Source: an uncultured Steroidobacteraceae bacterium
GTDB lineage: Bacteria > Pseudomonadota > Gammaproteobacteria > Steroidobacterales > Steroidobacteraceae
DNA: 54,874 nucleotides
Direction of reading: 5' to 3'
Assembly (NCBI GenBank): GCA_964412975.1
Contig: CAYPQX010000110.1
Span: 1 to 54,874 of the forward strand
The translations under genes were made by a program, and so were the position numbers. Position 1 is the stretch's first letter, and each line of letters starts with the position of its first letter. Shown in pieces: positions 18,068 through 41,482 of this stretch. Below the pieces are notes generated by a model. The model made no database searches and was not told the DNA's origin. It saw only the letters and a program-made list of their open reading frames with translations.

Positions 18068-18077
18068 ACGCCTCCGC

Positions 18078-20433: not shown

Positions 20434-20484
20434 TCGCGGCGTATACTCGGATAGATCGTGCATTGCAGGTCAAGGAGCGATCGC

Positions 20485-21290: not shown

Positions 21291-22568
21291 ATGAGGATGA
21301 AATCCACTCGTATTCTGCGTGCCATTGCAGTCGCGGCGGCCATCAGCTTGCTGGCCGGCTGCATGACCCAGAGCTCGTCTTCGCGACCGGAATCCGGTGG
21401 CGGTTCGTCGGGCGGTTCGTCGGGCGGTTCGTCCGGTGGTGGCTCGTCCGGCGGAGGTTCATCCGGCGGCGGCAGTTCGTCGGGAGGTGGTTCCTCTGAC
21501 GGCGGCTCGTCCGGCGGCGGCGGCGGCGGCGGATCCGACAGTTCCGGCGGCGGCGGTTCGACATCCGAGTTCCCGACCGAAGGTGACCAGAGCGGCGGCG
21601 AAGCCGCAGCTATTCCGATGCCGGGTGAGGACGGTGGCGCGTCCGGTGGTTCGACGCAGGATGCGAGCGGTGGCTCGACGGGCGGTGCCGAAGGCGCAAG
21701 TGGCGGGGGTTCGCCGGGCCAGGGTCCGGAATCCGGTGCGCAGGGTGGGAATGCTGGCGGCACATCCGAGGCCGGCCAGCCATGCGTCAGCACCGACGAT
21801 GAGACGACGACTAAAGATGGCGACGACATCAATACCACCGTCTGCGTCGACCTCCAGGTCGGCAGCTTGCCGGGCGGCCTCCCGGGTAGCTTGCCAGGCG
21901 GTGTACCGGGCGGCCCGCCGGGAGCACCTGGTGGAAATCCCGGTCAGGCTGGCGGAGAGCCGGGTTTGCCTGGTGTACCGGGTTCGACACAGGGTAGTCC
22001 GGGAGCTGGCGGCGATGTGGCCGGCCAGGCCGGACAACCGGACGGAGCCGGCGGCGCGGCGGGTCAGGGGCCCGGAGCCCCGGGTTCGGGAGGCCGTAGC
22101 GAGCAGATCGGCCGGCGGCTCGACGAAACATTCGGCACCTTCGATGCGGCGGTGCGCACGGCGCAAGCGGATATCGCGAAGGAGCGCTCGGCCGCCGAGG
22201 AAGCGGGGGCCGGTGGCGGTGAACCCGGCGGGGAAGGCGCGGGCGGCGAGGATGGCGAAGGCGCCGACGGCAGCAGCCCGAATCGCCAAGGCGGCCTGGA
22301 ATCGACGGGTGGCGCGGGCGGCGCCGGCGGCGCCGGCGAAACCGGCGCGGGCAGTGCGGACGCGGGCACGCCCGAAAGCGAGCAGGGCGGCGTGGGCGGC
22401 AGCGGCGCGGGCGGCCGCGGTCCGAGCGGGATTCCGGCCGACATTCCCGATGGCCGGGACGACGATATCGTCGCGCGGCAGATTCGCGAGGCGGCCATGA
22501 AGGAGACGGACCCGGAATTGCGCGAAGCGCTCTGGGAGGAATACCGTCGCTACAAGAAGGGGCGCTGA
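21291..22568 (+). CDS. Low-complexity Gly/Ser/Pro-rich lipoprotein with a conserved charged C-terminal helix
   Basis: It has the lipobox SLLAGC (alternative start ATG 21297). About 330 aa are GGSSG/PGG-type repeats, followed by DIPDGRDDDIVARQIREAAMKETDPELREALWEEYRRYKKGR. Confidence 0.75.
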   Translation: MRMKSTRILRAIAVAAAISLLAGCMTQSSSSRPESGGGSSGGSSGGSSGGGSSGGGSSGGGSSSGGGSSDGGSSGGGGGGGSDSSGGGGSTSEFPTEGDQSGGEAAAIPMPGEDGGASGGSTQDASGGSTGGAEGASGGGSPGQGPESGAQGGNAGGTSEAGQPCVSTDDETTTKDGDDINTTVCVDLQVGSLPGGLPGSLPGGVPGGPPGAPGGNPGQAGGEPGLPGVPGSTQGSPGAGGDVAGQAGQPDGAGGAAGQGPGAPGSGGRSEQIGRRLDETFGTFDAAVRTAQADIAKERSAAEEAGAGGGEPGGEGAGGEDGEGADGSSPNRQGGLESTGGAGGAGGAGETGAGSADAGTPESEQGGVGGSGAGGRGPSGIPADIPDGRDDDIVARQIREAAMKETDPELREALWEEYRRYKKGR

Positions 22569-22587
22569 GGCGCGTCCGACGGGTGCA

Positions 22588-23859
22588 ATGAACATGAATC
22601 GAACGGTGGCACTGGGACTGGTCTTCGCGGGCGCGCTCCTCGCGAGCGGCTGCGTCAAGGAGATGCGGCCCCTGCCGATCCTCCAGGCGACCCAGGCGAC
22701 GACCGAAATACCCGCCGAGCAGCTGCTCGACGTCGGCGTGCACATCCTCGATCCCGGCGTGCCGAAGGAGGTCGAGGAAGACCCCGAGCTCATGGATAAG
22801 CGGCGGATCTATCCGGAGATCCGCCAGGCCGAGGCGCGCTACATTGCGATGCAGCTTCGCGACACGCTCGAAGACACCGGCCATTGGGGCACGGCGCGGG
22901 TCGTGCCATCGACGGTGCAGTATTTCGACGTGACGGTCGACGGCCGGATCCTCGAGTCGAATGGCGCCAACCTGAAACTCGAAGTTACGGCGTACGACGC
23001 GATGGGCCGCATCTGGTTCGCCGAGCGCGAGTACGAGGGCCGCGCCGATACGCGCGCCTATAAGGACGGCTACAACAACGGCCGCGACCCGTTCGAGAAC
23101 GTCTACGTCGCGATCGCGAACGATCTCCTGGCGGCACGCGGGACGCGCCCGGCCGCCGAGCTCGCCAACATCCGCAAGGTCAGCGAGATGCGCTTCGCGG
23201 CCGACTTCGCTCCGGTCGCATTCAGCCAGTATCTCGAGAAGAACAAGAGGTCGGGCGAGTACAAAGTGCTCCGCCTGCCGGCCGAGGACGATCTGCTCGT
23301 GCAGCGCATCAACCAGATCCGCGAGCGCGACTACGGGATGATCGACACGGTCAGCGAAAACTACGCGGCCTTCAGCGAGCGGCTCGAAGAGCCTTACACG
23401 AGCTGGCGCCGCTACACCTATGACGAGATCACGGCTGAGGAGAAGCTCAAGGCCCAGGCGCGGAACCGTATGTTGATGGGTGCTGCGGCCGTCGCTGCAG
23501 CCGTGTTCGTGCCTGACAGCTGCAGCAGCAACGACTGCGCGCGCGTCGCGGATGCCGCACGCTACGGCGCGATGGCTGGTGGCGTCGCGGCGGTCATCAG
23601 CGGCTATCGCAAGCGCGAAGAGTCCAAGATCCACACCGAGTCGATCAAGGAAATCTCGAGCTCGTTCCAGAGTGAAGCGGCGCCTCTCGTCGTCGATGTC
23701 GAGGGGCGGACGCTGCGTCTGACCGGCACGGCGGAAGAACAGTACGCGGAGTGGCGCCGGCTCCTGCACGAGCTCTATCGGGAAGAAACCGGCCTGGTGC
23801 CAACCACGCCCGCCGCGGATTCGACGACGCCTGCCGCGCAATCGAGCGGCGCGGGTTGA
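22588..23859 (+). CDS. Hypothetical lipoprotein (423 aa)
   Basis: It has the lipobox LLASGC and starts 20 nt after the preceding gene. A hydrophobic segment lies near residue 300, and no domain is recognisable. Confidence 0.75.
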   Translation: MNMNRTVALGLVFAGALLASGCVKEMRPLPILQATQATTEIPAEQLLDVGVHILDPGVPKEVEEDPELMDKRRIYPEIRQAEARYIAMQLRDTLEDTGHWGTARVVPSTVQYFDVTVDGRILESNGANLKLEVTAYDAMGRIWFAEREYEGRADTRAYKDGYNNGRDPFENVYVAIANDLLAARGTRPAAELANIRKVSEMRFAADFAPVAFSQYLEKNKRSGEYKVLRLPAEDDLLVQRINQIRERDYGMIDTVSENYAAFSERLEEPYTSWRRYTYDEITAEEKLKAQARNRMLMGAAAVAAAVFVPDSCSSNDCARVADAARYGAMAGGVAAVISGYRKREESKIHTESIKEISSSFQSEAAPLVVDVEGRTLRLTGTAEEQYAEWRRLLHELYREETGLVPTTPAADSTTPAAQSSGAG

Positions 23860-23865
23860 TTCCCC

Positions 23866-26124
23866 ATGAAGGATTTGACGCCCGGGCTCGAACTCGGCGC
23901 CCGGTTTGTGCTGGTTCGGCGGATCGGCCGCGGAGGATCGGCGGAGGTCTGGCTCGCGGTTGACCGGGAGCGCGGTGAACACGTCGCGCTCAAGATCCTG
24001 GACGAATCCCTCGCGGGCGACGCCCCCCGCATGGCGAAGCTCGCGGACGAAATCGCGCGCGCGCAGTCCCTGCCGCCGGAGTTCACGGTCGCCGTTCACG
24101 GCATCCACCAGGCGGAAGGCCTCACGTTCGTCGCAATGGAATACCTCGAGACGGGCGACCTCGGCCAGTTGCGCGGCCGATCGTTCGAGAGTTGGGCGCG
24201 GGCGGCCGACGATGTCGCGGCAGGACTCGAGGCCCTCCATGCGCGCGGCCTCGTGCATCGCGACCTGAAATGCGCCAACGTCCTCCTCGATGGCGCGGGC
24301 CGCGCCCGCCTTGCCGATTTCGGGCTCACGGCGCTCGCGGGAAGCCGCGTGCCAGCCGGAGGTTCGCCCTACAACATAAGCCCGCAACAGTTGCGGGGCG
24401 AACCCGCGCAAGCCGCCGACGACCTCTATGCCTACGGCGCGCTCCTCTATGAATTGATCGCCGGGCATCCGCCTTACTACCCGGAGATCACGCAGGACCG
24501 CGTGTTGTACGAACCCGTGCCATCGCTCCTGCCGCGTGGCGTCGTGCCGGTCGGTGTCAGGGAACTTGCGCTGCGCCTGCTCGCGAAGTCGGCAAACGAG
24601 CGCCCGGCGAGCATGACGCAGGTGCGTGCAAAGCTCGCGGCGGCGGCGGCCGACGGGGGCGAGATCGTGCAACCGATCGCCCATGCGCTGCCGGCGGATG
24701 CCGCCCTGCAAGGCGGCCGCCGGCGCCGGTGGTTGCCGCTCGCGTTCGCCGCCGCGGTGATTGCGGCGGTCGCGACCTTCATCTGGCTCCAGCCGAAGCT
24801 TTCGGGCGGCAACTCAGCCTTCGAGCGCGATGCGCGCATTGAGGCCGAGCGGCAGGGGGAGGCAAAGCGCTCGCGCGAAGAGCGCCTGACGGAACAGGCG
24901 GCTACCCGCGCGAAGTCCGAGGCCGCGCGGGACAAGTACGAAACAGCGTTCAAGGCGCTCGACGCGCGCGCGGCCGCGCGCTGGGCCACGGCAGTCTTCG
25001 CAAAGGCCCGCGATGCCGGGGCCGAGGCCGCGCAGCGTTACGCCGTCGGCGAATACGCCGCCGCCGCAGAAGGATGGGAAGCGGGCCTCGCAAGTCTTGC
25101 CGAGCTCGAAAAGAAACTGCCGCAGGCGCTTGCGGATACGATGCGCCGCGGGCAACAGGCGCTCGCGGGTGCGCAGACCGCGGCGGCACGAGAGGCATTC
25201 GGGCTCGCGCTCGCAATCGCGCCGGGACATGCGCAGGCAACCGCCGGCATTGCGCGCGCCGACCGGCTCGACGAGGCATTGGCCGCGGTTGATGCGGCGC
25301 TTGCCGAGGAGCGCGCCGGGCGGCTTGCCGCCGCGGAATCGGGATTCCGCAAGGCGCTCTCGATCGATCGCGCGGTGCCTGGCGCGCAGGAGGCCATCGA
25401 CCGGCTCGCCGCGCGCCGCACCGGCGACGCATTTGCGGCGACCATGTCGCGCGGATTCGCCGATCTCGCCGCCGGGCGGAGCGATGCCGCGCGCGAAAGT
25501 TTTCGCCAGGCGCTTGCGCTTCGCCCCGGTTCGCAGGAGGCGCGCGATGCCATCGCGGCGCTCGAGCAGGGCGAGCGCTCGTCCGCATTGCGGCTCCTGG
25601 AAGCACGCGCGCGGACCGCAGAGGGCGATGAGCGCTGGGACGAGGCGCTCACAGCCTGGCGGGAGGCGGCGGCGCTCGAGCCTTCACTCGAATCGGCGCG
25701 CGAAGGCATTGCGCGCACAGCGCCGCGGGCGGAACTCCAGGGCAGGATCGAGGCTCTGAACAGCAAGCCGGAACGGCTCTGGGATCCCGAAGGTCGCGCC
25801 GAAGCGCGGACTCTTCTTGCGACGGCCGCCGCCACGGGCAATCCGCGCCAGCGCCTCGCCGCGGCCGCAGGCGAGCTCGAACGACTCACCGCTGCCGCGC
25901 AGTCTCCCGTGCGGCTGCGGCTCGAATCCGACGGGCTCACGCAGGTCGTGATCTATCGCGTTGGCCAGTACGGCACTTTTTCGACGCGAGAAGTCGAGTT
26001 GCTGCCGGGGCGCTATACGGTTGTCGGGACGCGAAACGGTTATCGTGACGTCCGGCGCGAAGTCGTGCTGCCGCCGGGCGCCCCGGCCCCGTCGGTCGTC
26101 GTGAGATGCGAGGAACCGATTTGA
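23866..26124 (+). CDS. Hanks-type Ser/Thr protein kinase with one TM helix and a periplasmic TPR/coiled-coil region
   Basis: It has the G-loop [26 protein letters not shown] and ADFG. The TM helix is [20 protein letters not shown]. Ala/Arg-rich TPR-like repeats follow, and it ends in a beta-rich C-terminal domain. Confidence 0.9.
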
Positions 26125-28493
26125 AGGAAGTCTGGCTCGACGATCCGCTCGGCGAACGACGGCTATTGCCGTCCGACCTGCCGCTGACCGTCGGGGGGGC
26201 CGGCGCGGGCGTCGTGATTCCGGGATGCAAACCCGGCGAGATACGCGCGCGCATCGCGCTCTCCGCGCGCGGCCTCGAGGTGACGCCAGGCCCGGGTGCA
26301 GGCGCTGCCGCGCTCGATGGCGTGCAGATTGAACTCGACGACCGCGAGGGCCGGCCGGTGATCGTTGTTCGGCACGGCGGCGTCACGAACCTGACGCGCC
26401 CACCGCAGTTCGAAGGCCAACCCGCTGACGCTGCCGCTGCGCAGGACGACCGGCAGCCGATCGCGATCATCGAGTACGCGCCGCGCGCCGCCCCCAGCCC
26501 GCGATCCACGGCACCGCGGAACTGGACGCGCCCCGCGCTCTGGGCGGCGGTCGCACTCGTGGTGCTCGCGCTCGGCTATCTCTTCACGGCGACTTCCGTC
26601 GAGGTGACGACGAGTCCGGAGGCGGATCTGGACGACGTCGATTTCGCGGGCACGACCCTCGACTTCGGCTTTGCCGGCCGCTACATGGTGCCGCCCGGCC
26701 AGTACGTGCTCGCGGTAGAGGCCGAGGGATATTCCAGGGCGCTGCAGCCGGTCGAGGTGGGTCGCCAGTCCGGTCAGCGTTTCGTGGTCGCGCTCGAGCG
26801 GCTGCCGGGTCGGGTGGCATTCGACACCGGCGGGATTGCCGCGACGCTTGCCGTCGACGGCGCGCCGGTCGGCGCGCTGCCGGGCGAATACGAACTGCGC
26901 GCCGGCACACGCGAACTCGCAATCGTTGCGCCGCGCCACGCCGAGGAGCGGCTTCGCTTCGAGGTCGCGGGTGGCGGAGAGCGCCAGGAATTGAAAGTTA
27001 CCCTGAAACCCCAGTACGCGCGGATCACCGTGACGAGCGTCCCATCCGGCGCAACGGTTTGGGCTGACGACCGCGAGCTCGGGACGACGCCGCTCGAAGC
27101 GGAGCTCGATGCGGGCCGCTACACGCTTGCGATCCTGCATCCGGAATTTCGTCGCTTCGAAAGTCCGCTCACGGTGCGTGCAGGCGAACCGCTCACCGTC
27201 GGTCCGGTGGAGCTCGGCATGCCCGACGGGCGCCTGATCGTGCAGAGCCGGCCGGCGGGTGCGGACGTGAGCATTGGCGGGCGTTATCGTGGCCGTACGC
27301 CGCTCACGGTCGGCGTCGCGCCCGGCATGCCGCAGGATGTGTTGCTGACGCTCGCGGGCCACGCGCCGGTGACCCAGAGCGTGAGCGTTGAAAGTCGCGC
27401 TGAGCGGCGGCTCAGCGTTGACCTGACGCCGGTGCTCGGCGAAGTCCGCGTGAGCGGCGAGCCGGCCGATGCGATCCTCTATGTCGACGGCGCGTCACGC
27501 GGGCCCGCGAACCAGACGCTTTCACTGTCCACGGCACCGCATGTATTCGAGATCCGGAAGGCGGGGCTCGAGCCATTCCGTTCGACCGTCACGCCGCGCG
27601 AAGGACAGACGCAGGTCGTCGAATTCACCCTGCGCACGGCCGGCGAAGCGCGAATTGCCAGCATGCCGGCGACACGCACGACGTCCCTCGGGCAGCCACT
27701 CGTGCTCGTGAACGGCGGCCGGTTCACGATGGGCAGCGCGCGACGCGAAGCGGGACGCCGCTCCAACGAAACCGAACGGATGGTCGAATTGAAGCGGCCT
27801 TTCTACCTGGGACGCTTCCAAGTGACGAACCGCGAGTTCCGGGAGTTCCGGGCCGACCATTTGTCCGGTATCTTCAAGGACGAAACACTGGATCTCGAGC
27901 GCCAGCCGGTGACCCGCGTGACCTGGCAGGATGCCGCGGCGTTCTGCAACTGGCTTTCGGAGCGCGACAAGCTGCCGCCGGCCTATGCGCGCAAGGGCGA
28001 CCGGCTGGAGCTGATCGAGCCGGTGACGACCGGCTACCGATTGCCGACGGAAGCGGAGTGGGAGTTCGCGGCGCGCTTCGATGGAAGCCGCGCGACTCGC
28101 AAGTACCCCTGGGGCAACGACCTGCCGGTGCCGGCGCGCTCCGGCAACTGGGGCGATGCGACGGCGATCTACCTCACGCCGGTGACGATCTCTGGCTATG
28201 ACGACGGCTTCCGCGTCGCGGCGCCGGTCGGCAGTTTTCCGGCCAATCCGCTCGGCATCCACGACCTCGGCGGCAACGTGCTCGAGTGGACGACGGATCG
28301 CTACTCCATCTACGTCGTCGGTCCCGATCATCTTTCGACGGATCCCGCCGGTCCGCGCGCCGGCGAGAATTACGTGATTCGCGGCGCGGGCTGGCTCACC
28401 GGCAAGGTTCCGGAACTGCGCGTCGCCGCGCGTGATTCGGGCGCCTCCGGCCGTCCGGATCTCGGTTTCCGGATCGCGCGTTATGCGGAATAG
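26106..28493 (+). CDS. Membrane protein with a cytoplasmic N-domain, one TM helix, several PEGA repeats and a C-terminal FGE/SUMF1-like (non-catalytic) domain
   Basis: It overlaps the kinase stop by 19 nt. PEGA-like units include [44 protein letters not shown] and [22 protein letters not shown]-like motifs include [41 protein letters not shown] and GFRIAR. The Cys pair of true FGEs is absent. Confidence 0.85.
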
Positions 28494-28497
28494 GCCA

Positions 28498-28818
28498 ATG
28501 GACATGAGGCTCCTGATCGGCATCGGCGCTTCATTGCTCGTGCTCGCGGCATTGGCCATCGAGCCGCCGAAGCCTGCGACGCCGCCCGCACGGGCGCCGC
28601 AGAACCGGGAGCCGGTCTCGACGCCGCCTTCCGCGCCGGCATCCGAAGCGCCGTCGCCTGAAGGGGCCGACACGGCCGCGGCGGAGGCGGAAGGCGAAGA
28701 AGAAACGCTGCCTCCGCTGCCGGCCGATGCTGCGCCTTCAGGGCCGCCGCCCGCACGATTCAATCCGACGGAAAAAGTCCGGGCGGACTTTCCCGTCTCG
28801 TTCCCGATCGATATCTGA
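28498..28818 (+). CDS. Small membrane-anchored Pro/Ala-rich protein
   Basis: The ATG lies 2 nt after the upstream stop (alternative ATG 28483). It has the TM helix MRLLIGIGASLLVLAALAI, a PxP-rich segment, and the C-terminal RFNPTEKVRADFPVSFPIDI. Confidence 0.55.
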   Translation: MDMRLLIGIGASLLVLAALAIEPPKPATPPARAPQNREPVSTPPSAPASEAPSPEGADTAAAEAEGEEETLPPLPADAAPSGPPPARFNPTEKVRADFPVSFPIDI

Positions 28819-28831
28819 GGACAACGACAAC

Positions 28832-29629
28832 ATGAAGAGCCGATATCCGAAGGAGTTCCTGTACAGCCTGGGCTCGCTGCTGGCCGCCGCAATCGTCATA
28901 CATACGATCTGGACCGCCTGGGTGCGTCCCAATGCGCAGGCCGTCCTGTCCGTCCAGTATGAAGCGATGCAAAAGGATCCAAATTTCGTTTCCGAAAGAT
29001 CGCTGTTCGTGGTCATGAAAGACTGGGAGCAGGAGAGTTGCGTCGTCTTGATGGTCTGGGCGCTCGCGATGATCGCCTTCAAGAACCGCATCACGCGGCG
29101 CGAACAGGACCTTCTGGACGGCGATCCCGTGCGCGTCCCGGAGGGGATGCGCATCCTGCCTGAGGACACGCGCGAGTACGTACGGCAGCTCGAATCGCTG
29201 CCGGGCGAGCAGCAGCAGTCCTTGATCGTGCGCGCTGCCAAGGCGGCGCTCGCGCGCTTCGGCGCGACCCGGAATGTCCAGGACGTCTCGGAGGCGGGTC
29301 ATGCGGTCTGCGCCGCCGAGGCGGAAAGGCTCGATTCGGAGCTGTCGATGCTCCGCTACATCGCCTGGGCGATACCGGCCATCGGCTTCATCGGCACCGT
29401 GCGCGGCATCGGCGACGCGCTCTCGCAGGCCCACAAGGCGGTGACCGGCGACATCTCGGGCGTCACGGAAGGCCTCGGCGTTGCGTTCAATTCGACGCTC
29501 GTCGCGCTGTTGCTTTCGCTCGTTCTGATGTTCCTGCTGCACCAGCTGCAGCTCGCGCAGGAGAGGCTCGTGCTCGACGCCGAAACCTACCTCGACAATC
29601 GCGTGTTGCGGAACCTGCAGGTCCGTTGA
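28832..29629 (+). CDS. MotA/TolQ/ExbB-family proton-channel protein
   Basis: It is trimmed to ATG 28832. It has an N-terminal TM helix, a cytoplasmic segment, and then the family signature AIPAIGFIGTVRGIGDALS...GVTEGLGVAFNSTLVALLLSLVLMF. Confidence 0.82.
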   Translation: MKSRYPKEFLYSLGSLLAAAIVIHTIWTAWVRPNAQAVLSVQYEAMQKDPNFVSERSLFVVMKDWEQESCVVLMVWALAMIAFKNRITRREQDLLDGDPVRVPEGMRILPEDTREYVRQLESLPGEQQQSLIVRAAKAALARFGATRNVQDVSEAGHAVCAAEAERLDSELSMLRYIAWAIPAIGFIGTVRGIGDALSQAHKAVTGDISGVTEGLGVAFNSTLVALLLSLVLMFLLHQLQLAQERLVLDAETYLDNRVLRNLQVR

Positions 29630-29630
29630 G

Positions 29631-30971
29631 ATGCCGTCGATCGGCATCGAAGTCGTCGATGCGGCCGTTACGGTTGTGCGGGACGGCGCACGCCTCGCGT
29701 CGAGCCCCGGCATCGCGCTCCTCGAGCCGGCAGGCGTAGTGGTCGGCGAGGCGGCAGCGGCTGCCGCGCGACTGCAGCCGGTGCTCGCAAGCGACCGGTT
29801 CTGGTCGGATCTCGCCCAGGAATCGCTGGCCGGGCCGCCGGATCGTGTGATGTCGCACGCGGATCTCGCTTACGCGCACCTGGCGGAACTCTGGCGCGCG
29901 ACCGCGCGCGAGGGTGATGCGGCAGCCTTCGCCGTGCCCGGCTCGATGCGCGTGCAGCAGGTCGGCCTGCTGCTTGGGATTGCGCGCGCCGCCGGCATCC
30001 CGGTGGCGGGCGCCGTGGATTCCGCCGTCGCCGCCTGTGCGGGACTCGCGGCGCGTGCGTCGGTGCTGCATCTCGACGTGCAATTGCACCAGACGGTGCT
30101 GACGGAATTGCAGGGCGCGACCGTGCTGCGCCGCCGCCGCGTGGAGTTCGCGCCGCGCGCGGGACTCAAGCCGATGTATTCCGCCTGGGCGCAGCTGGTG
30201 AGCGAAGCGATGGTGCGACGCACGCGCTTCGATCCGCTGCATCAGGCCGCGAGCGAGCAGCAGCTTTACCAGCGCTTGCCGGCCTGGCTCGGCGAGCTGG
30301 CGGGCCGGGACTCGCTCGACGTCGCGATCGAAACCGAAGCGGGATCGTTCGGCGCGACCCTCCGGCGTGAGCAGTTCACGCTGGCGGCGGAGGCCTGGTA
30401 CGCGCAGATCTCGGAGCTCGTGCGCGGCGGCCGTCGCGCCGACGAGTCGGCGACGCTCGTCATTTCGGCGCGCGCCGCGTCGCTGCCCGCGCTCGGCGAG
30501 CGCCTCGCGTCGCTGCCTGGACTCGAATTGCAGTCCCTGCCGGATACCGCGGCTGCGGCCTCGGCAGCCGCCCGCGCGGACGAGATCGGCCCCGGTGAAC
30601 CGCCCGCGCTCGTGACTGCACTCGCGCGGAGTCATCCGGTTGAAGGAGGCGACCGCCGCCGCGAAGTTGCGGCATCGGCGACCCACATCGTCCATGAAGG
30701 CCGGGCGTATGCGATCGACGACCGGCCGCTCGTGATCGGCCTGGGGCCGGGCGACGGACGGCGCATCGCGCTTGGAGGCGCGGGCGACGGCATCTCGCGC
30801 GCGCACTGCACGCTCATGCGTCGCGCGGGCCGCGCGGTCATCCGCGACCATAGCCGTTACGGGACCTTCGTGAATGGCGAGCGCGTGGAAGGCGAATCGG
30901 GCCTCGGCCCAGGCGACCGGCTCCGCGTCGGCACGCCGGGTGTCGTGTTCGAACTGGTGGCGGTCGGCTGA
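29631..30971 (+). CDS. Cytoplasmic protein with a C-terminal FHA domain and an unassigned ~330-aa N-terminal domain
   Basis: The FHA domain is RPLVIGLGPGDGRRIALGGAGDGISRAHCTLMRRAGRAVIRDHSRYGTFVNGERVEGESGLGPGDRLRVG. It starts 1 nt after the ExbB-like stop and overlaps the next gene start by 1 nt. Confidence 0.85.
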   Translation: MPSIGIEVVDAAVTVVRDGARLASSPGIALLEPAGVVVGEAAAAAARLQPVLASDRFWSDLAQESLAGPPDRVMSHADLAYAHLAELWRATAREGDAAAFAVPGSMRVQQVGLLLGIARAAGIPVAGAVDSAVAACAGLAARASVLHLDVQLHQTVLTELQGATVLRRRRVEFAPRAGLKPMYSAWAQLVSEAMVRRTRFDPLHQAASEQQLYQRLPAWLGELAGRDSLDVAIETEAGSFGATLRREQFTLAAEAWYAQISELVRGGRRADESATLVISARAASLPALGERLASLPGLELQSLPDTAAAASAAARADEIGPGEPPALVTALARSHPVEGGDRRREVAASATHIVHEGRAYAIDDRPLVIGLGPGDGRRIALGGAGDGISRAHCTLMRRAGRAVIRDHSRYGTFVNGERVEGESGLGPGDRLRVGTPGVVFELVAVG

Positions 30972-32053
30972 TGGCGCGGCGCAAGACACTCACGTACAGC
31001 ATGTCCTTCCTGGACGTGATCTCCTGCGGCTTCGGCGCGGTCGTGCTGTTCTACACGATCATCAGCGCGCAGGCCGGCCTGTACCGGATCAAGGAAAGCT
31101 CGGATCTTTCCGCGGAATCCCGCCGGCTCGAGCAGGAGGTGCTCGACGGATACAAGCACCTCGCGGAATTGCGCAATGCCCTCGAATCCACGGAAGACCG
31201 GACCGTCCGGGCCGCGGGCCTGTCGCGAGAGATGCTGGAAAAACTCCGCATGACGGAGGAGGAACTCGCGCGATACGAGCACGATACCCTTGCGCGCCGC
31301 GAAAGCCTTGAACGCCTGAAAGCCGACCTCAAGTCGCTCGAGGAAAGCACGCGGCGGCTGAAGGAAGCCGCGCCGCCGGAGTCCGGCGAGTCCAGGGTGC
31401 CGATCATCGACAAGCAGCAGCTAGTGACGCTTCGAATCGATGGCAGGCGCGTGCTGGTGCTGGTCGATTCGTCTGCCAGCATGCTCGACGAGACGCTCGT
31501 CAACATCATTCGCCTGCGTAACATGGCACCGGAGCGACGCATCGCTTCGAGCAAGTGGCGGCAGGCGGTCAACACGGTCGAGTGGGTCGCTTCGCGCCTG
31601 CCGGATACGACGCAATTCCAGATCTACGCCTTCGATACCGCGGCGCGCCCGTTGGTCGAAGGGAGCGCGGGCCGCTGGCTCAGCGTGAAGGACGCGGGGC
31701 AGATTGAGCTCGCATTGCAGGCCCTGCGCAGGACGGCGCCCACGGGCGGCTCGAGCCTGCAAAACGCCTTTGCCGTCATTAAGACCCTGAATCCTGCGCC
31801 GGACAATGTGATCCTGGTGACCGACGGGCTGCCGACGCAGGGCGCCAAGCCACCGCTCATGCGCACGCTCGTGACGATGGAACAGCGCGAGGACCTGATG
31901 CAGGACGCGATCAAGTCGCTGCCGCCATCGCCGCCCCCGTTCAGCACGGTTTTGCTGCCGATGGAGGGCGATCCTTCCGCGCCCATCTACTTCTGGCGCC
32001 TGGCCCGCTCCACTGGCGGCGGCTTCCTGAGCCCGGCGAAGGACTGGCCGTGA
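30971..32053 (+). CDS. TM (ExbD/TolR-like Asp helix) - coiled coil - vWA domain protein, paralog 1
   Basis: The N-terminus is MARRKTLTYSMSFLDVISCGFGAVVLF. A heptad-rich segment follows, then vWA MIDAS LVLVDSSASM and ...ILVTDGLPTQG. Confidence 0.85.
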   Translation: MARRKTLTYSMSFLDVISCGFGAVVLFYTIISAQAGLYRIKESSDLSAESRRLEQEVLDGYKHLAELRNALESTEDRTVRAAGLSREMLEKLRMTEEELARYEHDTLARRESLERLKADLKSLEESTRRLKEAAPPESGESRVPIIDKQQLVTLRIDGRRVLVLVDSSASMLDETLVNIIRLRNMAPERRIASSKWRQAVNTVEWVASRLPDTTQFQIYAFDTAARPLVEGSAGRWLSVKDAGQIELALQALRRTAPTGGSSLQNAFAVIKTLNPAPDNVILVTDGLPTQGAKPPLMRTLVTMEQREDLMQDAIKSLPPSPPPFSTVLLPMEGDPSAPIYFWRLARSTGGGFLSPAKDWP

Positions 32054-33069
32054 AACGCCGCACGCGACGCGATACCGAGACCTTCAGCATGTCGTTCCTC
32101 GACTGCATCTGCTGCGGATTCGGCGCGATCATCCTGTTGCTGGTACTGAACGAGGTCGGCCAGCCGATCCAGCTCGAGCAGGCCAAAGTAGACCTCGACG
32201 CACAGATCGTGAAGATGGAGAAGGAGATTTTCGATATTCGCGGGATGTCGATCGTGCTCGAGCGGGAACTGCGCGCGCGGATCGAGCAGTTGTCGGAAGA
32301 ACAGAAGCGTGTCGCCAGGCTGCGTGGCGACTTGTCCGAGATTTCCGGCAAGCACAAGGCAGGCACCGACGAGGAAGACGCGCTCAAGAAGCTCACGGAA
32401 ACGCTCACGAGCGCTCGCCGTGCGCTGATCGACGAGACACGGGAATTGCAGGCGAGCGGCCGCCAACAGATGTACAACCAGCCGGTCGCGGGCGTCCCGA
32501 TCGACAGCGAATACGTCATCTTCATCGTCGACACCTCGGGCTCCATGCAGTCGCAGAACTGGCGCTACGCGGAGCAGAAGCTCGGTGAGGTGCTGAACAT
32601 CTACCCGAAGCTCAAGGGAATCCAGGTGATGGATGACGAGGGCGGGTACATGTTCAGCGAATACCGCGGCAAGTGGATCCCGGACTCGCCGGCGCGGCGT
32701 CGGGCGATCCTGGACCGCTTCCGCAAGTGGCAGGCATTCTCGAATTCGAGTCCGTCCGAAGGGATCATCGCGGCGATCCGCACGTTCTGGACTCGCGACC
32801 ATCCGATCAGCATTTACGTGTTCGGCGACGAGTTCACCGGGCCGTCGATCCAGGAAGTCGTCGACACCGTCGACCGGATCAACCGCTCGGCCGGTACGGG
32901 CGAGCGCCTCGTCCGCATTCATTCGCTCGGGTTTCCGATTCCGGCCCAGTACCCGCAGCACACGAGCATGCGTTACGCGACGCTCATGCGCATACTGTCG
33001 GCGCGAAACGGCGGCGTGTTCGTCGGCCTTCCCGAAGGCAATAGTACCGCCTTGCGACGGAGCAATTGA
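32050..33069 (+). CDS. TM (ExbD/TolR-like Asp helix) - coiled coil - vWA domain protein, paralog 2
   Basis: The GTG start overlaps the previous stop (GTGA). The N-terminus is MKRRTRRDTETFSMSFLDCICCGFGAIILL. A coiled coil follows, then MIDAS IFIVDTSGSM. Confidence 0.85.
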   Translation: MKRRTRRDTETFSMSFLDCICCGFGAIILLLVLNEVGQPIQLEQAKVDLDAQIVKMEKEIFDIRGMSIVLERELRARIEQLSEEQKRVARLRGDLSEISGKHKAGTDEEDALKKLTETLTSARRALIDETRELQASGRQQMYNQPVAGVPIDSEYVIFIVDTSGSMQSQNWRYAEQKLGEVLNIYPKLKGIQVMDDEGGYMFSEYRGKWIPDSPARRRAILDRFRKWQAFSNSSPSEGIIAAIRTFWTRDHPISIYVFGDEFTGPSIQEVVDTVDRINRSAGTGERLVRIHSLGFPIPAQYPQHTSMRYATLMRILSARNGGVFVGLPEGNSTALRRSN

Positions 33070-33842
33070 TGAGACAAGCGAACATCCGCACGGCGGTCGC
33101 CGCCCTTTTTATCGCGCTGTTTTCGGGCTGCACGGCGACCCGCCTCACCACGGAGGCGCAGCTGCCGCCGCCGCTGATCGAGAAGCTGCCGATACGCGTT
33201 GGCGTCTACTACTCGAAGGAGTTCCAGGAGTACGTGCACCGCGAAACCCGCGGCAACATCGAGTACGAGATCGGCCTCGGGGCCGCGCACGTGACGAACA
33301 TCGACTGGCTGATGAAGGCGATGTTCACCGACGTGGTGCCGGTTGAGGACCCGACGAAGATCGCCGATAGCAATCCGCCGTTCGTCTTCGTACTCGAGCC
33401 GAAATTCGAGGAGTACTCTTTCCTGACGCCGAAGGACGTGGCCGGCGAAGCCTTCATCGTGACGATCCGCTATATGCTGACGCTCTACGACGGCGACGGC
33501 GCTCGCGTGGATTCTTTCACGCTCACCGGGTATGGGCGCGAGAAGGCGCGCACGCTCGCGAGCAAGGAACCACTTCAGGTCGCGACGCAGCGGGCGATGC
33601 GGGATGCGGGAGCCAAGGTCGCCGTCGAGTTGACCGAGCAGGAATCCGTGCGGCTCCTGATCCGCAATGCGGGCAGTTTTTCGCCGCTACCGCCTCCACC
33701 CCTGTATCCGCCGGCGGGCGAAGCGCCACCGGTTGAGGCGCCACCCGGCGCAGCACCGACGCTGGAACAGATGCCGGTGGGGGAACTTCCCGCCGAGGCG
33801 CCGCCTGAACCGGAGGCGCCGCCCTCAACTACCGGGGTCTGA
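33069..33842 (+). CDS. Hypothetical lipoprotein with a Pro-rich C-terminal tail
   Basis: ATG 33069 (or TTG 33066) overlaps the upstream stop. It has the lipobox ALFSGC and the tail PLPPPPLYPPAGEAPPVEAPPGAAP. Confidence 0.75.
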   Translation: MRQANIRTAVAALFIALFSGCTATRLTTEAQLPPPLIEKLPIRVGVYYSKEFQEYVHRETRGNIEYEIGLGAAHVTNIDWLMKAMFTDVVPVEDPTKIADSNPPFVFVLEPKFEEYSFLTPKDVAGEAFIVTIRYMLTLYDGDGARVDSFTLTGYGREKARTLASKEPLQVATQRAMRDAGAKVAVELTEQESVRLLIRNAGSFSPLPPPPLYPPAGEAPPVEAPPGAAPTLEQMPVGELPAEAPPEPEAPPSTTGV

Positions 33843-35441
33843 CTTCGCGGCCGGGGTCGGTGTCGCGGCCGGCGCCGGGTTGTGTTCCTCGTACCATTCG
33901 CCGGTGAAGGTGACGCCTTCGGTTGCGACCGCCTTGCCGTTGGCAAAGCGCGGGCTGTAGATCGCCTTGGACAATGAGCGCATCGACTGCGACAGCTGGC
34001 CTTCCGACATGTTGGTCGAGACGACCGAGACGTTCTGCGGCACCCCGGTTTCCGAGACGAAAAAGCTGAAGACGGTCTTGCGAATGATGTACTGGCCGGT
34101 CAGCGTGTTGAGGCCGCGGGCCGCGGAGACCGGCGGGCGATAGAACACCATCCGCGGCACCATGAGCGGATTGCCGGCCAGCGGATCAAAGGAGTTTCGC
34201 GTCTCGAGGATCGTGGCAGCTTCCTTATAGAAGGGAATCGCAAAGTTCGGCCGCGACGTCGTTTGGTACCAGTCGCCGAGTTCGATCAGCGTTTCGGTCA
34301 TGAGATCCTGCGGCGGATCCGACGTCGCGCGCAAGAGCTCGAGCGCCGTCTGCACGGACTTGAGGCCGGTGCGGTCAGCCGCCGGCGGCGGCACGCGCGA
34401 CTCGCGATAGACCTTGCCGACGATCTCGCCCGTGATCTCGTCGCGCGCCGGCTGCTGGCTTTCGAGCGTGTCCGGATCCATCGTGTACTGCAGACGGTGG
34501 GTGCGGGCGACTCCGACGAGCGCCTTGATCGCAAGCGGATTGAATCCGCCGCTCTCCCTGAAGGCGGCATCGCGCGCGCGCAGGTACATCATCCGCGCCG
34601 CGATGAATTCCCGGAGCGACTCATAGAAGGTCGCGAGTTGCAGCAGTGCCGGGAGCGTGCGCTCGTCGCCGTAACCGTAATTCTGTTCGGCGATCTTGAG
34701 CGCGTACATGTACTGTTTCTCGACGCCGCCAAAATCATTGATGGCGTACCGGCTGTCCGCGGCCTGTTCGATCAGTGGCAACTGCGCCAGGTTGAACAGG
34801 CCCTCGGAGCGGCGGCTGACCGCGAGCGCGCGATCGAAGAGCCCGGCGGCGAGCGCGTGCTGGTCCTGCGCCGCGTACACGGCGCCGAGACCGGCAAGCG
34901 GGACGATGAGGCGCCGGGACGAAATGCCCTGGGTCGCCTCGAGCAGTTCGAGCGATTTCTGGTAGCTTCCTGCCGCGGCCGGGTAATTGGAGAGCTGATA
35001 CTGCGTCGCGCCCAGGTTGTTATACGCAATCGGCAATTCGTAATCGCGTTCGGGGTCGGCTTCCGACAACTCGACGACGCGCCGCGCATAAGGCAAGGCT
35101 TCTTCGAAGTGCGCGGTTTCGTAGAGACCGCGGAACTGATCGTAGGCCTCCATGCGCGGATCCTGCGCAAGGATACGCAGCTGCTGGCGGGGCGCCGCCG
35201 GCTTCACATGTGCCTCGATCACGTCCGCGGTCGGCATCGTCACCGGGGTTCCAGCGGGCTCGCCGGTTGCAGGCCCTGCCGATCTGTCTGCGCCGGAAGC
35301 CGGCGGGTTCGCTGGTAGCGATTCGGCGGCGCCGGTTTCCACTGGCGGCGGCGCAGGGGTCACCGCGACCTCGGCCTCGGCCGAGGCAGCCGCGAGCAAC
35401 AGGAAGGCGAGCACCGGGGTCATGCTGTGACGATAGACCAT
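33825..35441 (-). CDS. Periplasmic TPR-repeat protein with a C-terminal TonB_C-like domain
   Basis: It has the signal peptide MTPVLAFLLLAAASAEA (start ATG 35441 or 35423) and TPR-like repeats (YNNLGATQYQLSNYPAAAGSYQKSLELL). The C-terminus VFSFFVSETGVPQNVSVVSTN...AIYSPRFANGKAV resembles the TonB C-terminal fold. It is convergent with the upstream block and overlaps it by 18 nt. Confidence 0.75.
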   Translation of the reverse strand: MVYRHSMTPVLAFLLLAAASAEAEVAVTPAPPPVETGAAESLPANPPASGADRSAGPATGEPAGTPVTMPTADVIEAHVKPAAPRQQLRILAQDPRMEAYDQFRGLYETAHFEEALPYARRVVELSEADPERDYELPIAYNNLGATQYQLSNYPAAAGSYQKSLELLEATQGISSRRLIVPLAGLGAVYAAQDQHALAAGLFDRALAVSRRSEGLFNLAQLPLIEQAADSRYAINDFGGVEKQYMYALKIAEQNYGYGDERTLPALLQLATFYESLREFIAARMMYLRARDAAFRESGGFNPLAIKALVGVARTHRLQYTMDPDTLESQQPARDEITGEIVGKVYRESRVPPPAADRTGLKSVQTALELLRATSDPPQDLMTETLIELGDWYQTTSRPNFAIPFYKEAATILETRNSFDPLAGNPLMVPRMVFYRPPVSAARGLNTLTGQYIIRKTVFSFFVSETGVPQNVSVVSTNMSEGQLSQSMRSLSKAIYSPRFANGKAVATEGVTFTGEWYEEHNPAPAATPTPAAKSDPGS

Positions 35442-35481
35442 ACGCCGTCGGGCGTGTTCCCTGCGGGCCAGGGCCGGCCAT

Positions 35482-36639
35482 TCATTTGCCCCTGGCATCG
35501 CGTTCGAAAACCGCTATCAGGCCGCCCGCGCAGACAGCGAGCAGGGGATCGGTGATTTCAGCCGTCTGGCCCGGCAGCCAGGTCTGCAGGAACTCGATCG
35601 AAAACACAGCCCCGGCGCCGAGTCCAGCCGCCGCGAAGACCGGCAAGCCGAACTGAACAAGGAGCCAGACCAGGGCGCCATTCATGAAGCAGCGAAGGAA
35701 CATGTCCGTCAGGTTGGTTGCGCGATACTGGGTCAGCGACTCACCGAAGGGCAGCAGCGCGAACCGGTCCTGTGAGAGCTGGAAGTCGAAGGGGGCGAGA
35801 CCTTCGATCGCGATCAGTAGCAGGAGCGCGACGGCGAGTACGAACGCAACCCGCGGAACCGGCAGCCGCGCGAGCGGACGCGCAAGTGCGAGCGCCGCGG
35901 CCATGCCCGTGACTTCGGCGGGCTCGAGTGCGATTCCGGCGAACAGCACGCGACCTGCGAGCACGAAGCCCATGGCGATCGCGACGATCGCAATAGGCCG
36001 GCCAGGAGCGAGCCGACCGCAGATCAAGACGAGCACGAGCCAGGCGACGAGGTGCGGTAGCACCGCGGCAGTCTGGAGCCAGCCGCCGCCGGCTAGCGGG
36101 TTGAACGCGGAGGCCCACTTGTCGGGTTCCAGAACCGGCGCAAATGGCGCCAGCCGGTAGCCGATCCATGAGAGAAGCAGCACGGCCGCTACTGGATGGC
36201 TGAGCACGCCCGCGAACGGCGACGAATCCAGCCGGTTGCGTGTGCGCGCAATCGCAAGCGCAAAGCAGGCGCCCGCGAACGCGCCGATGGTGTTACACGA
36301 GAAATCGGCGAGGCTCGTGACGCGCCGCGTTTCGTAAAGCTGGGCGAACTCGATGGCGAAGGACAATGCGGCGGCCGCGATGGTTGCCGTGGCGACTGCG
36401 AACGGGCCGCTGGCGCGCGCGGACAGGAGCCAGGCGAGGCAGGCGCCGAGCGGCAGATAGAGCAGCACATTGGCCGCGACGTCGCTTCGAGTCGTGCCCG
36501 CGAAAGTGAGCCCGCGCAGGAGATCGACCGGACTCGAGCCGACCGCGGCGAAGCTGAAGGGATAAAGCGAGCCGAAGACGATGAGGAACAGGATGACGGC
36601 GAGGAGCGAGGCTGCAATCCTGAGATCCTGCGCCGCCAC
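35482..36639 (-). CDS. VanZ-like polytopic membrane protein
   Basis: It has a GTG start. The N-terminal segment LYPFSF...NVLLYLPLG...FAIEFAQLY...SLADFSCNTIGA is typical of the VanZ domain, and additional TM helices follow. Confidence 0.7.
   Translation of the reverse strand: MAAQDLRIAASLLAVILFLIVFGSLYPFSFAAVGSSPVDLLRGLTFAGTTRSDVAANVLLYLPLGACLAWLLSARASGPFAVATATIAAAALSFAIEFAQLYETRRVTSLADFSCNTIGAFAGACFALAIARTRNRLDSSPFAGVLSHPVAAVLLLSWIGYRLAPFAPVLEPDKWASAFNPLAGGGWLQTAAVLPHLVAWLVLVLICGRLAPGRPIAIVAIAMGFVLAGRVLFAGIALEPAEVTGMAAALALARPLARLPVPRVAFVLAVALLLLIAIEGLAPFDFQLSQDRFALLPFGESLTQYRATNLTDMFLRCFMNGALVWLLVQFGLPVFAAAGLGAGAVFSIEFLQTWLPGQTAEITDPLLAVCAGGLIAVFERDARGK

Positions 36640-38530: not shown

Positions 38531-41482
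<2,952 letters not shown>

Follow-up and report, generated by a model that had tools for sequence, protein, structure and literature searches.

A conserved twelve-gene envelope cluster centred on a putative ion-driven motor with vWA heads

The gene block and its motor-like core

The subject of this study is a block of genes in a 54,874-nucleotide (nt) stretch of DNA from an uncultured Steroidobacteraceae bacterium (contig CAYPQX010000110.1 of assembly GCA_964412975.1); the whole of this stretch is referred to as the window. Ten genes of the + strand, designated g1 to g10, span positions 21291-33842, and in the table of open reading frames (ORFs) their junctions are gaps of 1-19 nt or overlaps of 1-19 nt. 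The gaps measure 19 nt at 22568/22588, 6 nt at 23859/23866, 4 nt at 28493/28498, 13 nt at 28818/28832 and 1 nt at 29629/29631, and the overlaps measure 19 nt at 26124/26106, 1 nt at 30971/30971, 4 nt at 32053/32050 and 4 nt at 33069/33066. A convergent gene, g11, overlaps the end of g10 by 18 nt. All of the ORFs and junctions on which the initial annotation of this DNA had based its description, ten packed same-strand genes and a convergent gene with an 18-nt overlap, are present in the ORF table. Judged by spacing, the genes of the block are a tightly packed operon; a promoter and terminator scan gave counts at chance level and was uninformative. With a lipoprotein gene located immediately upstream (g0), the cluster comprises 12 genes, and we consider it probable that they encode one envelope-spanning, proton-driven machine that is based on a motor of the 5:2 type.

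The core of the proposed motor is formed by the products of g6, g8 and g9. The product of g6 (28832..29629, + strand) is a protein of 265 amino acids (aa) and is assigned to the MotA/TolQ/ExbB family as a putative "A" subunit, based on a match to PF01618 over its C-terminal transmembrane (TM) helices (Pfam; E 2.3e-14, 53.7 bits, cut-off 22.9). Its matches to the TolQ and ExbB models of NCBIfam are weak and below cut-off, and it is without the long cytoplasmic tail of ZorA. Two of its threonines, T189 in the motif GTVRG and T222 in the motif FNST, are invariant in 75/75 sequences. The threonines of the TolQ motifs GLFGTVWGI and LIAT are the essential pore threonines of TolQ. T189 and T222 of g6 align with these two residues (HMMER, 8odt).

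The candidate "B" subunits are encoded by g8 (B1; 30971..32053, + strand) and g9 (B2; 32050..33069, + strand). The N-terminus of both proteins is a short basic tail followed by FS[LM]SFLD..CGFGA, and the Asp within this motif is invariant in the trans-pore helix of each family, as Asp15 in g8 (63/63 sequences) and as Asp18 in g9 (46/46 sequences). The trans-pore helices, "FLDVISCGFGAVVLFYTII" and "FLDCICCGFGAIILLLVL", contain neither a His nor an SHLS motif. In the AlphaFold2 (AF2) model of g8, which has a pLDDT (predicted local distance difference test) score of 91.2, a continuous helix from residue 8 to residue 133 is followed by a disordered flexible linker and then by an alpha/beta domain. 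Foldseek identifies this domain as a vWA domain, with matches to CLCA1, anthrax-toxin receptors, BatB (3ibs, 4jdu) and integrin I domains. In Pfam, VWA_2 is found in g8 with an E of 2.7e-6 and weakly in g9 (E 0.0032). The metal ion-dependent adhesion site (MIDAS) is composed of D166, S168, S170 and D285 in g8 and of D161, S163, S165 and D260 in g9, and column counts demonstrate that DxSxS...D is invariant in both families. The layout of g9 is the same as that of g8, namely tail, Asp helix, stalk and vWA domain. Two paralogous proteins of the TM-stalk-vWA type had been proposed from the translations alone; this paralogy is supported by BLASTP (E 1e-13 across the N-terminal 173 aa), by the helix-vWA architecture of the g8 model and by the invariant MIDAS.

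No protein of the block matches the ExbD, TolR or MotB/OmpA families in Pfam and NCBIfam. A profile of g8 searched against the PDB returned coiled coils and vWA domains and no ExbD or TolR, and we attribute the lack of a match to the helix, which is too short for profile detection. Like the ExbD/TolR/MotB group, g8 and g9 have a single TM helix at the N-terminus and, close to the cytoplasmic end of this helix, an invariant Asp; the ExbD/TolR or OmpA-like periplasmic domain of that group is not found. Thus, the combination of one MotA/TolQ/ExbB-type A subunit with two B subunits that carry MIDAS-containing vWA heads, with no gene for ExbD, TolR or MotB, held in all of the sequence-level tests. 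MotAB, ExbBD, TolQR and GldLM belong to a family of 5:2 motors in which a pentamer of A subunits surrounds a dimer of B-subunit helices. By analogy with these motors, g6 is presumed to form the pentameric channel and g8 and g9 the heterodimeric B pair. Because approximately 100 helical residues extend past the membrane, the vWA heads would be located ~15 nm out, near the peptidoglycan and the outer membrane.

Conservation of the cluster and its other components

A total of 80 related loci were fetched and compared by tblastn with 11 window proteins (g1-g11), and ORF families were defined by all-against-all clustering of the ORFs from 52 long loci. Homologues of g6 number ~8000 among 90% clusters in the protein search, and a scan of GTDB species genomes found a g6 relative in at least 584 of them. 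The carriers are mostly Steroidobacteraceae, Woeseiaceae, Nevskiaceae and GTDB "Pseudomonadales", and relatives of g6 also occur in Vicinamibacteria, Thermoanaerobaculia and other Acidobacteriota. By tblastn, every sufficiently long locus of the 80 has the order g1 (C-terminus)-g2-g3-g4-g6-g7-g8-g9, and it is retained down to 57% identity in g6 and ~25-45% identity in the other proteins. The family of g8 comprises 251 clusters at 50% identity with E<=1e-30, Verrucomicrobia included. One 28%-identical member is from Puniceicoccaceae (Verrucomicrobiota), and its locus contains, in the same order, a kinase-less g3-like gene, a PEGA-FGE protein, a small protein, MotA_ExbB, a 499-aa protein and two vWA proteins. 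The 499-aa protein, which occupies the position of g7 and is Hsp70-like, begins with "MKYLGIDLSDANV", and the helices of the two vWA proteins read "F[GS]LSFMDCICCGFGAVIL". The gene-neighbourhood comparison that had been proposed as a check therefore supports the block, since its genes are co-conserved among the 80 loci and in the Verrucomicrobia locus, across three phyla. The same order in all of the long loci among the 80 is far beyond chance. On this comparison of sequences, the cluster is a single system across three phyla (Gammaproteobacteria, Acidobacteriota and Verrucomicrobiota) and not a chance juxtaposition.

The operon is circularly permuted among lineages. In the Steroidobacteraceae type, g0 is first and the convergent g11 is at the end; in the "Pseudomonadales" type, the order is g11-g1-g2-g3-g4-g5-g6-g7-g8-g9-g10-g0, with g11 first and on the same strand and g0 last (L050, L052, L054, L057, L067, L068, L072, L078 and L080). 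In the 80-locus comparison, g0, g10 and g11 are jointly missing from the Acidobacteriota and Woeseia-like loci. To judge by this distribution, the three genes form an accessory "outer" module.

The gene g4 (26106..28493, + strand) encodes an FHA-like N-terminus, a TM helix (aa 144-162), PEGA repeats (Pfam E 6.7e-41) and a C-terminal FGE/SUMF1 fold (FGE-sulfatase E 8.6e-47). The catalytic Cys pair of the human enzyme (C336/C341) is absent from this fold; the human segment MCHRSYCYRYR aligns with LTGK--VPELR of g4 (HMMER, 2aii and 2afy), and the reading of g4 as a PEGA-FGE protein that lacks the catalytic pair is borne out by this alignment. Furthermore, the FGE domain matches PorK in the PDB (9mzu, E about 1.6e-17) and the PorK/GldK model of NCBIfam (TIGR03525, E 1.6e-27). 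The cytoplasmic FHA-like N-terminus is found in most lineages. In the window (26106-26560) and in its closest relatives (L001 and L008), it carries an internal deletion, and the deleted segment corresponds to NG...L..GD..G (alignment columns 100-200).

The product of g7 (29631..30971, + strand) had been annotated as a cytoplasmic FHA protein. The FHA domain is present at the C-terminus, after a linker (Pfam E 1.7e-10), but the main domain of the protein, which resembles the nucleotide-binding domain (NBD) of Hsp70, had not been recognised. In the AF2 model (pLDDT 82.8), aa 1-330 match the NBDs of DnaK (Foldseek E ~1e-15, TM-score 0.74-0.76, root-mean-square deviation 3.6-3.7 A), and profile matches to Ssz1, Ssb1 and DnaK are weak. 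The phosphate-binding motifs DLGTTNS and DLGGGTFD have diverged, and the family consensus at these sites reads ELNDAG and HLDxxLH. D10 and D130 are still invariant, and the linker and the FHA domain take the place of the substrate-binding domain. Because the phosphate motifs have diverged and there is no substrate-binding domain, g7 is placed outside the chaperone family; on the evidence of the model, it is Hsp70-like by fold and not a member of that family.

A Hanks-type Ser/Thr kinase is encoded by g3 (23866..26124, + strand). Its kinase domain occupies aa 1-270 (Pfam Pkinase E 3.5e-31, together with TPR), and a TM helix at aa 290-308 in the hydropathy scan is followed by a TPR region in the periplasm and, at the C-terminus, by a PEGA-like beta domain. 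The motifs VALK, HRDLKxxN and DFG are kept in the translation, and the kinase can rightly be called catalytically intact. In the Pseudomonadales-type loci, the orthologue of g3 has ~500 aa and is entirely without the kinase domain, as is the g3 of the Verrucomicrobia locus. A census of three modules, namely the kinase, the FHA-like N-terminus of g4 and the FHA domain of g7, was performed over 65 evaluable loci by tblastn and checked against alignments. All three modules are present in 33/65 loci and absent in 12/65, and the remaining 20/65 are mixed, most of these being contig ends or cases at the limits of tblastn sensitivity. The Verrucomicrobia locus is without all three, and in loci that have no kinase the FHA domain of g7 has degenerated or been lost. 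The kinase and the two FHA modules therefore behave as one evolutionary unit, which argues that they act in concert and serve to regulate the machine rather than belong to its core. This pattern of sequence co-variation argues for an accessory regulatory layer. The phosphothreonine wiring that the initial annotation had proposed thus fares well insofar as the modules co-vary, but it is not part of the core, because all three are gone in 12/65 loci and in Verrucomicrobia. The g3 of L065 and L079 keeps the kinase domain with a degenerate catalytic loop (HRS, HGQ), and L079 is also without the FHA domain of g7 and the FHA-like N-terminus of g4; from their sequences, these two loci appear to be partway through losing the regulatory layer.

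In the N-terminal tails of g8 and g9 (RRxT-E-x-FS; window positions 30971-31010 and 32050-32100), a Thr lies three residues before the conserved Phe. In the kinase-bearing loci, this Thr is found in 28/53 (g8) and 28/52 (g9) sequences, and in the kinase-less loci it is found in 0/10 and 0/10. These counts are suggestive only, and on them the tail Thr is a candidate phospho-acceptor site. FHA domains have been connected with motors and secretion machines in other systems. Fha is reported to bind a phosphothreonine of TssL (PMC3953482), and in GltG the FHA domain that lies next to a TM helix is itself predicted to bind the AglR pentamer (PMC11761067).

Three lipoproteins had been claimed for the block; we count four because g0 had been overlooked. 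The ORF of g0 (20458-21183, + strand) opens with a GTG at 20458, and the likely start is the Met at 20485 (20485..21183). The protein has the lipobox LLLAGC, four invariant Cys and the motifs FPWFEPxTAP, GVRYLVWxDG and GGCxGFxWWE, and it has no match in Pfam or among PDB sequences. It forms one family in 42/52 long loci. The gene is upstream of g1 in the Steroidobacteraceae-type loci and downstream of g10 in the Pseudomonadales-type loci; because its position switches with the permuted gene order, g0 travels with the cluster. When g0 is considered a part of the system, the block begins ~800 nt earlier than 21291. The second lipoprotein, g1 (21291..22568, + strand; lipobox LLAGC), has a low-complexity region of ~330 aa rich in Gly/Ser/Pro, and at its C-terminus a short, charged segment is conserved. 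It has no Pfam match, and in the other loci its C-terminal part alone is detectable by tblastn. The third, g2 (22588..23859, + strand; LLASGC), is a 423-aa protein in which the alignment of homologues reveals a Gly/Ala-rich hydrophobic pair at ~aa 295-340. The protein search returned 2442 homologues of g2, and the 120 that were listed are unnamed or hypothetical and without a Pfam domain. The gene is found in gammaproteobacterial and acidobacterial loci, in nearly all of the long ones, and BLASTP gives no match in the Verrucomicrobia locus; g2 has no sequence or profile match in the PDB and no match in Pfam. The fourth, g10 (33066..33842, + strand; LFSGC), has a conserved domain of ~180 aa and a Pro-rich tail, occurs in gammaproteobacterial loci together with g0 and g11, and has no PDB or Pfam match in the profile search.

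The two remaining proteins are g5 and g11. The small Pro-rich protein g5 (28498..28818, + strand) begins with an N-terminal hydrophobic helix (a signal or an anchor), which is followed by a low-complexity Pro/acidic linker. Its ORF is conserved as annotated, but its conserved C-terminus, ...F.PTEKV.AD..VSFP(V/I)DI-COOH, had been overlooked. In most of 25 loci that were inspected, Acidobacteriota included, g4 and g6 are separated by an ORF of the g5 type, and the equivalent in the Verrucomicrobia locus ends in ...VEMPSDV. In L060, a large insertion is found at the position of g5 between g4 and g6. Judging from its sequence, the C-terminus of g5 could be a ligand of the MIDAS or a ligand for beta-augmentation. 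The convergent gene g11 (33825..35498, − strand) encodes a secreted protein with a cleavable-looking signal peptide, TPRs (TPR_12, Pfam E 2.4e-22) and a C-terminal TonB_C domain, and it has no SHLS-type or His-containing TM anchor. In full length, g11 does not match TonB_C at E<=0.01 in Pfam, and the C-terminal segment matches at E 0.0099, below the curated cut-off. At the level of the family, TonB_C (PF03544) is matched in 19/22 members, and a C-terminal family profile matches TonB2 in the PDB (2k9k) with an E of 2.4e-11, which upholds the original assignment of TonB_C to this protein.

Known systems, the proposed mechanism and rival explanations

The motor idea is already published as a prediction. 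According to a study in Mol Biol Evol (2025;42:msaf138; PMC12204202, Fig. 4c-d), a tolQ-like gene is tightly linked to pairs of mostly heterologous genes that encode a trans-pore helix and a vWA domain. In this class there is no tolR/exbD gene, and the TolR/ExbD-like trans-pore helix has a conserved Asp and no SHLS motif. An AlphaFold3 5:2 model in that study has the Asp residues facing the Thr ring, and the class was found in Proteobacteria and Verrucomicrobia, with Idiomarina loihiensis as an example and its function left unassigned there. Our block shares with this class the tolQ-like gene, two different TM-tethered vWA genes, the lack of tolR/exbD, the conserved Asp, the lack of an SHLS/His motif, the pore Thr and, in the g8 family, the occurrence in Verrucomicrobia; the block was placed in the class by gene architecture and motifs. 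However, PMC12204202 covers only the motor and vWA genes and mentions no kinase, phosphorylation, forkhead, Hsp70, DnaK, PEGA or sulfatase, whereas the block adds a kinase, FHA domains, an Hsp70-like protein, a PEGA-FGE protein, g5, lipoproteins and a TPR-TonB_C protein. A literature search for a follow-up to the vWA motor of PMC12204202 found none. The 12-gene system and its regulation are undescribed. Therefore, the statement in the initial annotation that the block maps onto nothing known does not stand for the motor class, but it does stand for Tol-Pal, Ton, Zorya, the T6SS (type VI secretion system) pathway and Bat.

The block resembles the Tol and Ton systems in its MotA/TolQ/ExbB A subunit, in the bitopic B subunits with a TM Asp, in the logic of a proton-driven force across the envelope and in the TonB_C domain of g11. 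In contrast to those systems, its B subunits have vWA heads on a coiled-coil stalk rather than an ExbD/TolR periplasmic domain, it is without an SHLS-anchored TolA/TonB, its TonB_C protein is secreted, contains TPRs and has no anchor, and TolB, Pal and a linked TonB-dependent transporter are lacking. None of the 12 proteins matches TolA, TolB, Pal or CpoB in Pfam and NCBIfam, and the Ton combination of an SHLS anchor, a Pro-rich spacer and TonB_C with ExbB and ExbD is not found, since g11 has no anchor and there is no ExbD. The Agl-Glt gliding machinery of Myxococcus likewise combines one TolQ-like protein with two different TolR-like subunits (AglR with AglQ/AglS), and it has FHA domains that lie beside a TM helix and are predicted to bind the motor, together with TPR, TonB_C-like and vWA parts (PMC11761067). 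However, its vWA protein, CglB, is a surface adhesin of the outer membrane and not a B subunit of the motor, and the block encodes no GltA-K, AglZ, MglA or outer-membrane barrel (no family matches in Pfam and NCBIfam).

The TagQRST-PpkA-PppA-Fha1 threonine phosphorylation pathway of the H1-T6SS in P. aeruginosa has a similar set of parts: a TM Hanks kinase with a periplasmic sensor, an FHA reader, a periplasmic vWA domain, the periplasmic FGE-family protein TagR and an outer-membrane lipoprotein. COG1262 is the FGE/SUMF1 domain. The periplasmic vWA domain of PpkA interacts with TagR (COG1262), which is held at the outer membrane by a lipoprotein (PMC3224232, PMC13584744). In that pathway, however, the vWA domain is fused to the kinase, whereas in the block it is found on the motor subunits and the kinase carries TPRs; in addition, the kinase layer of the block is dispensable in whole lineages. 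There are no PP2C, TagS/T or T6SS genes in the block, and no PP2C or T6SS protein is found among the window ORFs scanned with Pfam. The type IX secretion system (T9SS) module GldLM-GldKN (PorKLMN) is comparable in having a 5:2 proton motor and a bitopic subunit that reaches toward the FGE-fold protein PorK/GldK. It differs in that PorL, PorM and PorN have no homologues in the block, in the phyla concerned and in that the FGE protein g4, instead of being a ring lipoprotein of the outer membrane, is attached by a PEGA stalk to the inner membrane. With PADLOC, the only sign of Zorya is a weak match of ZorA to the MotA-like part of g6 (E 6.9e-5), with no other Zor protein, and no AAA+ (MoxR) or DUF58 match that would indicate a Bat/MoxR-vWA system is found in the block (Pfam, NCBIfam). 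In NCBIfam and PADLOC, no curated system was found for the block proteins, only generic kinase and FGE matches and the weak ZorA match. The Pfam and NCBIfam scans also agree with the earlier statement that the block contains no PP2C, MoxR ATPase or OmpA/MotB partner. Ternary vWA conflict systems (eLife 2020) were considered and rejected because they have a different architecture and no MotA/ExbB.

In the mechanism that we propose, which is modelled on the known 5:2 motors, five g6 copies would enclose two N-terminal helices, one from g8 and one from g9, both with a proton-binding Asp, and proton flow would turn or pull the g8/g9 pair. The stalks would carry the MIDAS vWA heads to the peptidoglycan/outer-membrane layer, where the heads would grip a partner via a metal-bound carboxylate. 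The candidate partners include the Cys-less FGE/lectin-fold head of g4, which its PEGA stalk would hold at a similar height, and this head is a reasonable candidate ligand because of the precedent of the PpkA vWA domain and TagR. The other candidates are the acidic C-terminus of g5, which is nearly invariant across phyla, the lipoproteins of the outer membrane (g2, g0 and g10) and the TPR-TonB_C protein g11. The Hsp70-like protein g7, which is encoded between g6 and g8 and is a fixed cytoplasmic partner, would probably dock on the cytoplasmic face of the motor or on the conserved tails of g8 and g9 and act as a clutch or an assembly factor. In many lineages, the window included, g3 would sense the periplasm via its TPR region and phosphorylate a Thr, for which the RRxT-E-x-F tail is the candidate site; the phosphothreonine would be read by the FHA domain of g7 and, in most lineages, by the FHA-like N-terminus of g4, and this reading would switch the motor or its assembly. 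We read the whole as a probable regulated transducer of force across the envelope, powered by the proton-motive force, and as its output we favour the handling or tethering, with an input of energy, of a lipoprotein or glycan complex in the outer envelope. The most far-reaching form of this proposal is a new trans-envelope machine of several phyla, in which the B subunits use 15-nm integrin-like MIDAS arms to pull an assembly of FGE-lectin, lipoproteins and TonB_C, with an Hsp70-fold clutch and, in some lineages, a Hanks kinase that switches the machine via FHA-read phosphorylation of the B-subunit tails; we put this form forward tentatively and regard it as doubtful.

Several points weigh against the proposed machine. 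The sequence match of g6 to the solved TolQ (8odt) is weak (E 0.067), and the hydropathy scan gives either 3 or 4 TM helices for g6. Because the helices of g8 and g9 have no profile match to ExbD/TolR, their likeness to these families exists at the motif level only. It is we who infer the 5:2 assembly, the rotation and all of the periplasmic contacts. No gene for an outer-membrane barrel, an effector or a substrate is conserved in the cluster, and the output is therefore a guess. As for the kinase switch, phylogeny confounds the correlation of the tail Thr with the kinase, since the loci without a kinase amount essentially to a single clade, the Thr is missing in approximately half of the kinase-bearing loci, and Pfam finds no PP2C phosphatase encoded in the block. 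Moreover, the internal deletion in the FHA-like N-terminus of g4 means that this branch of the wiring may be defunct in the window.

The same motor could have a different output and drive a surface-motility, adhesion or secretion apparatus in the style of Agl-Glt or GldLM/PorKLMN, in which adhesins are cycled or substrates exported and the FGE protein has a structural role like that of PorK/GldK. The matches of the g4 FGE domain to PorK/GldK (TIGR03525 and 9mzu) are consistent with this explanation, as are the joint occurrence of a TolQ/R-like motor with FHA, TPR, TonB_C-like and vWA parts in Agl-Glt (PMC11761067), the fact that gliding is raised in PMC12204202 for a related family of SHLS-anchored vWA transducers and the CsgG-family gene that adjoins the Verrucomicrobia locus. 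Nevertheless, we consider it unlikely, given that the cluster has no conserved outer-membrane barrel, secretion-signal adhesin, PorL/M/N, GltA-K or substrate gene, that its vWA domains are tethered to the inner membrane and not surface exposed, and that g4 is TM-anchored whereas PorK is a lipoprotein. Quite unlikely, in our opinion, is a system that acts mainly as a sensor of envelope damage or ligands in the manner of TagQRST-PpkA-Fha. The lipoproteins, the FGE protein and the vWA domains would then detect a cue in the outer envelope, the TolQ-like protein would energise or gate the sensing, and the kinase and FHA proteins would relay the signal to a target encoded elsewhere. The repertoire is indeed that of the T6SS pathway (Hanks kinase, FHA, vWA, COG1262/FGE and outer-membrane lipoproteins), and the kinase has a periplasmic TPR sensor region. 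However, entire lineages do without the kinase and the two FHA modules and keep the motor, vWA, FGE, Hsp70-like and lipoprotein genes, and signalling therefore cannot be the core function; furthermore, no T6SS, PP2C or obvious output gene is located nearby.

A Zorya-type anti-phage or conflict system, in which a MotAB-like motor senses the perturbation of the envelope by phage and triggers a response, appears very improbable. The weak ZorA match of g6 involves the MotA/ExbB domain only, and the matches of the kinase to the kinase models of defence systems represent generic Pkinase similarity. No ZorB, ZorC, ZorD, nuclease or other effector is present, and the constant gene order, the distribution that tracks taxonomy in hundreds of species and the housekeeping neighbours are unlike the patchy, island-borne occurrence of defence systems. 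Equally hard to credit is a vWA/TPR envelope complex of the Bat (BatA-E) or TerY type, which would have no motor and in which the TolQ-like protein would be a passive scaffold. The Bat operon contains pairs of TM-anchored vWA proteins together with TPR proteins (BatA/BatB/BatC), a likeness that counts for such a complex, and BatB (3ibs, 4jdu) is among the Foldseek matches of the g8 vWA domain. However, the block has no MoxR ATPase, DUF58 or PP2C, and the invariant TM Asp of g8 and g9 and the invariant pore Thr of g6 over three phyla would be difficult to account for if no ions were conducted.

Flagella, TonB-dependent uptake, Tol-Pal, gliding and the T9SS, and Zorya defence draw their power from ion-driven 5:2 motors, and each newly understood member has opened a field. 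Far from being a curiosity of three genes, the vWA-headed motor considered here lies at the heart of a system of ~12 genes in at least 584 species of three phyla from soil, sediment and marine habitats. Its partners are now defined, namely an Hsp70-fold protein, a dead FGE-lectin on a PEGA stalk, g5, four lipoproteins and a TPR-TonB_C protein, and lineages that have the kinase/FHA layer can be set against those that lack it, as a natural on/off comparison. The ligands of the vWA heads, the control of a stator by Ser/Thr phosphorylation and the envelope process that is energised have thus become testable. A kinase-switched stator, if true, would be the first ion-driven stator under Ser/Thr phosphorylation control. 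Should the machine turn out to be nothing unusual (a redundant tether of the outer membrane, for instance), a large stretch of annotation that now reads "hypothetical protein" would still be filled in.

Neighbouring genes and minor observations

Very long antisense ORFs overlap the real genes of the block, including 21829-24711 (− strand, 960 aa), 21459-22793 (− strand) and others. A filter on codon-position GC was passed by only two of the antisense ORFs checked, 26163-27362 and 28738-29241, each of which is wholly contained in a well-supported gene. The long antisense ORFs were treated as artefacts of the 65-70% GC content rather than as genes.

The neighbours of the block in the window are housekeeping genes (hut genes, an rluA-like gene and an M48 peptidase), and the surroundings are not those of a mobile or defence island. 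Genes for a radical SAM protein (19363-20433, + strand) and an MFS transporter (17997-19328, + strand) lie directly upstream of the block, and radical SAM, MFS and VanZ neighbours recur beside the cluster in related loci. The upstream radical SAM gene is found in 27 loci and the MFS gene in 21. Because both are confined to the Steroidobacteraceae-type arrangement, they were rejected as members of the system and probably represent local synteny. Approximately 3 kb downstream of the block, a gene at 38531-41482 (+ strand) encodes a protein of unusual architecture, a 983-aa TonB-dependent receptor (Plug and barrel) with an OmpA peptidoglycan-binding domain fused at the C-terminus; this gene is not among the ORF families that recur beside the cluster elsewhere. 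In the Verrucomicrobia locus, the CsgG-family lipoprotein gene (L081:12982-13944, − strand) directly follows the cluster, and an ATPase of the type II secretion system type (MshEN/T2SSE) is encoded a few kb beyond it.

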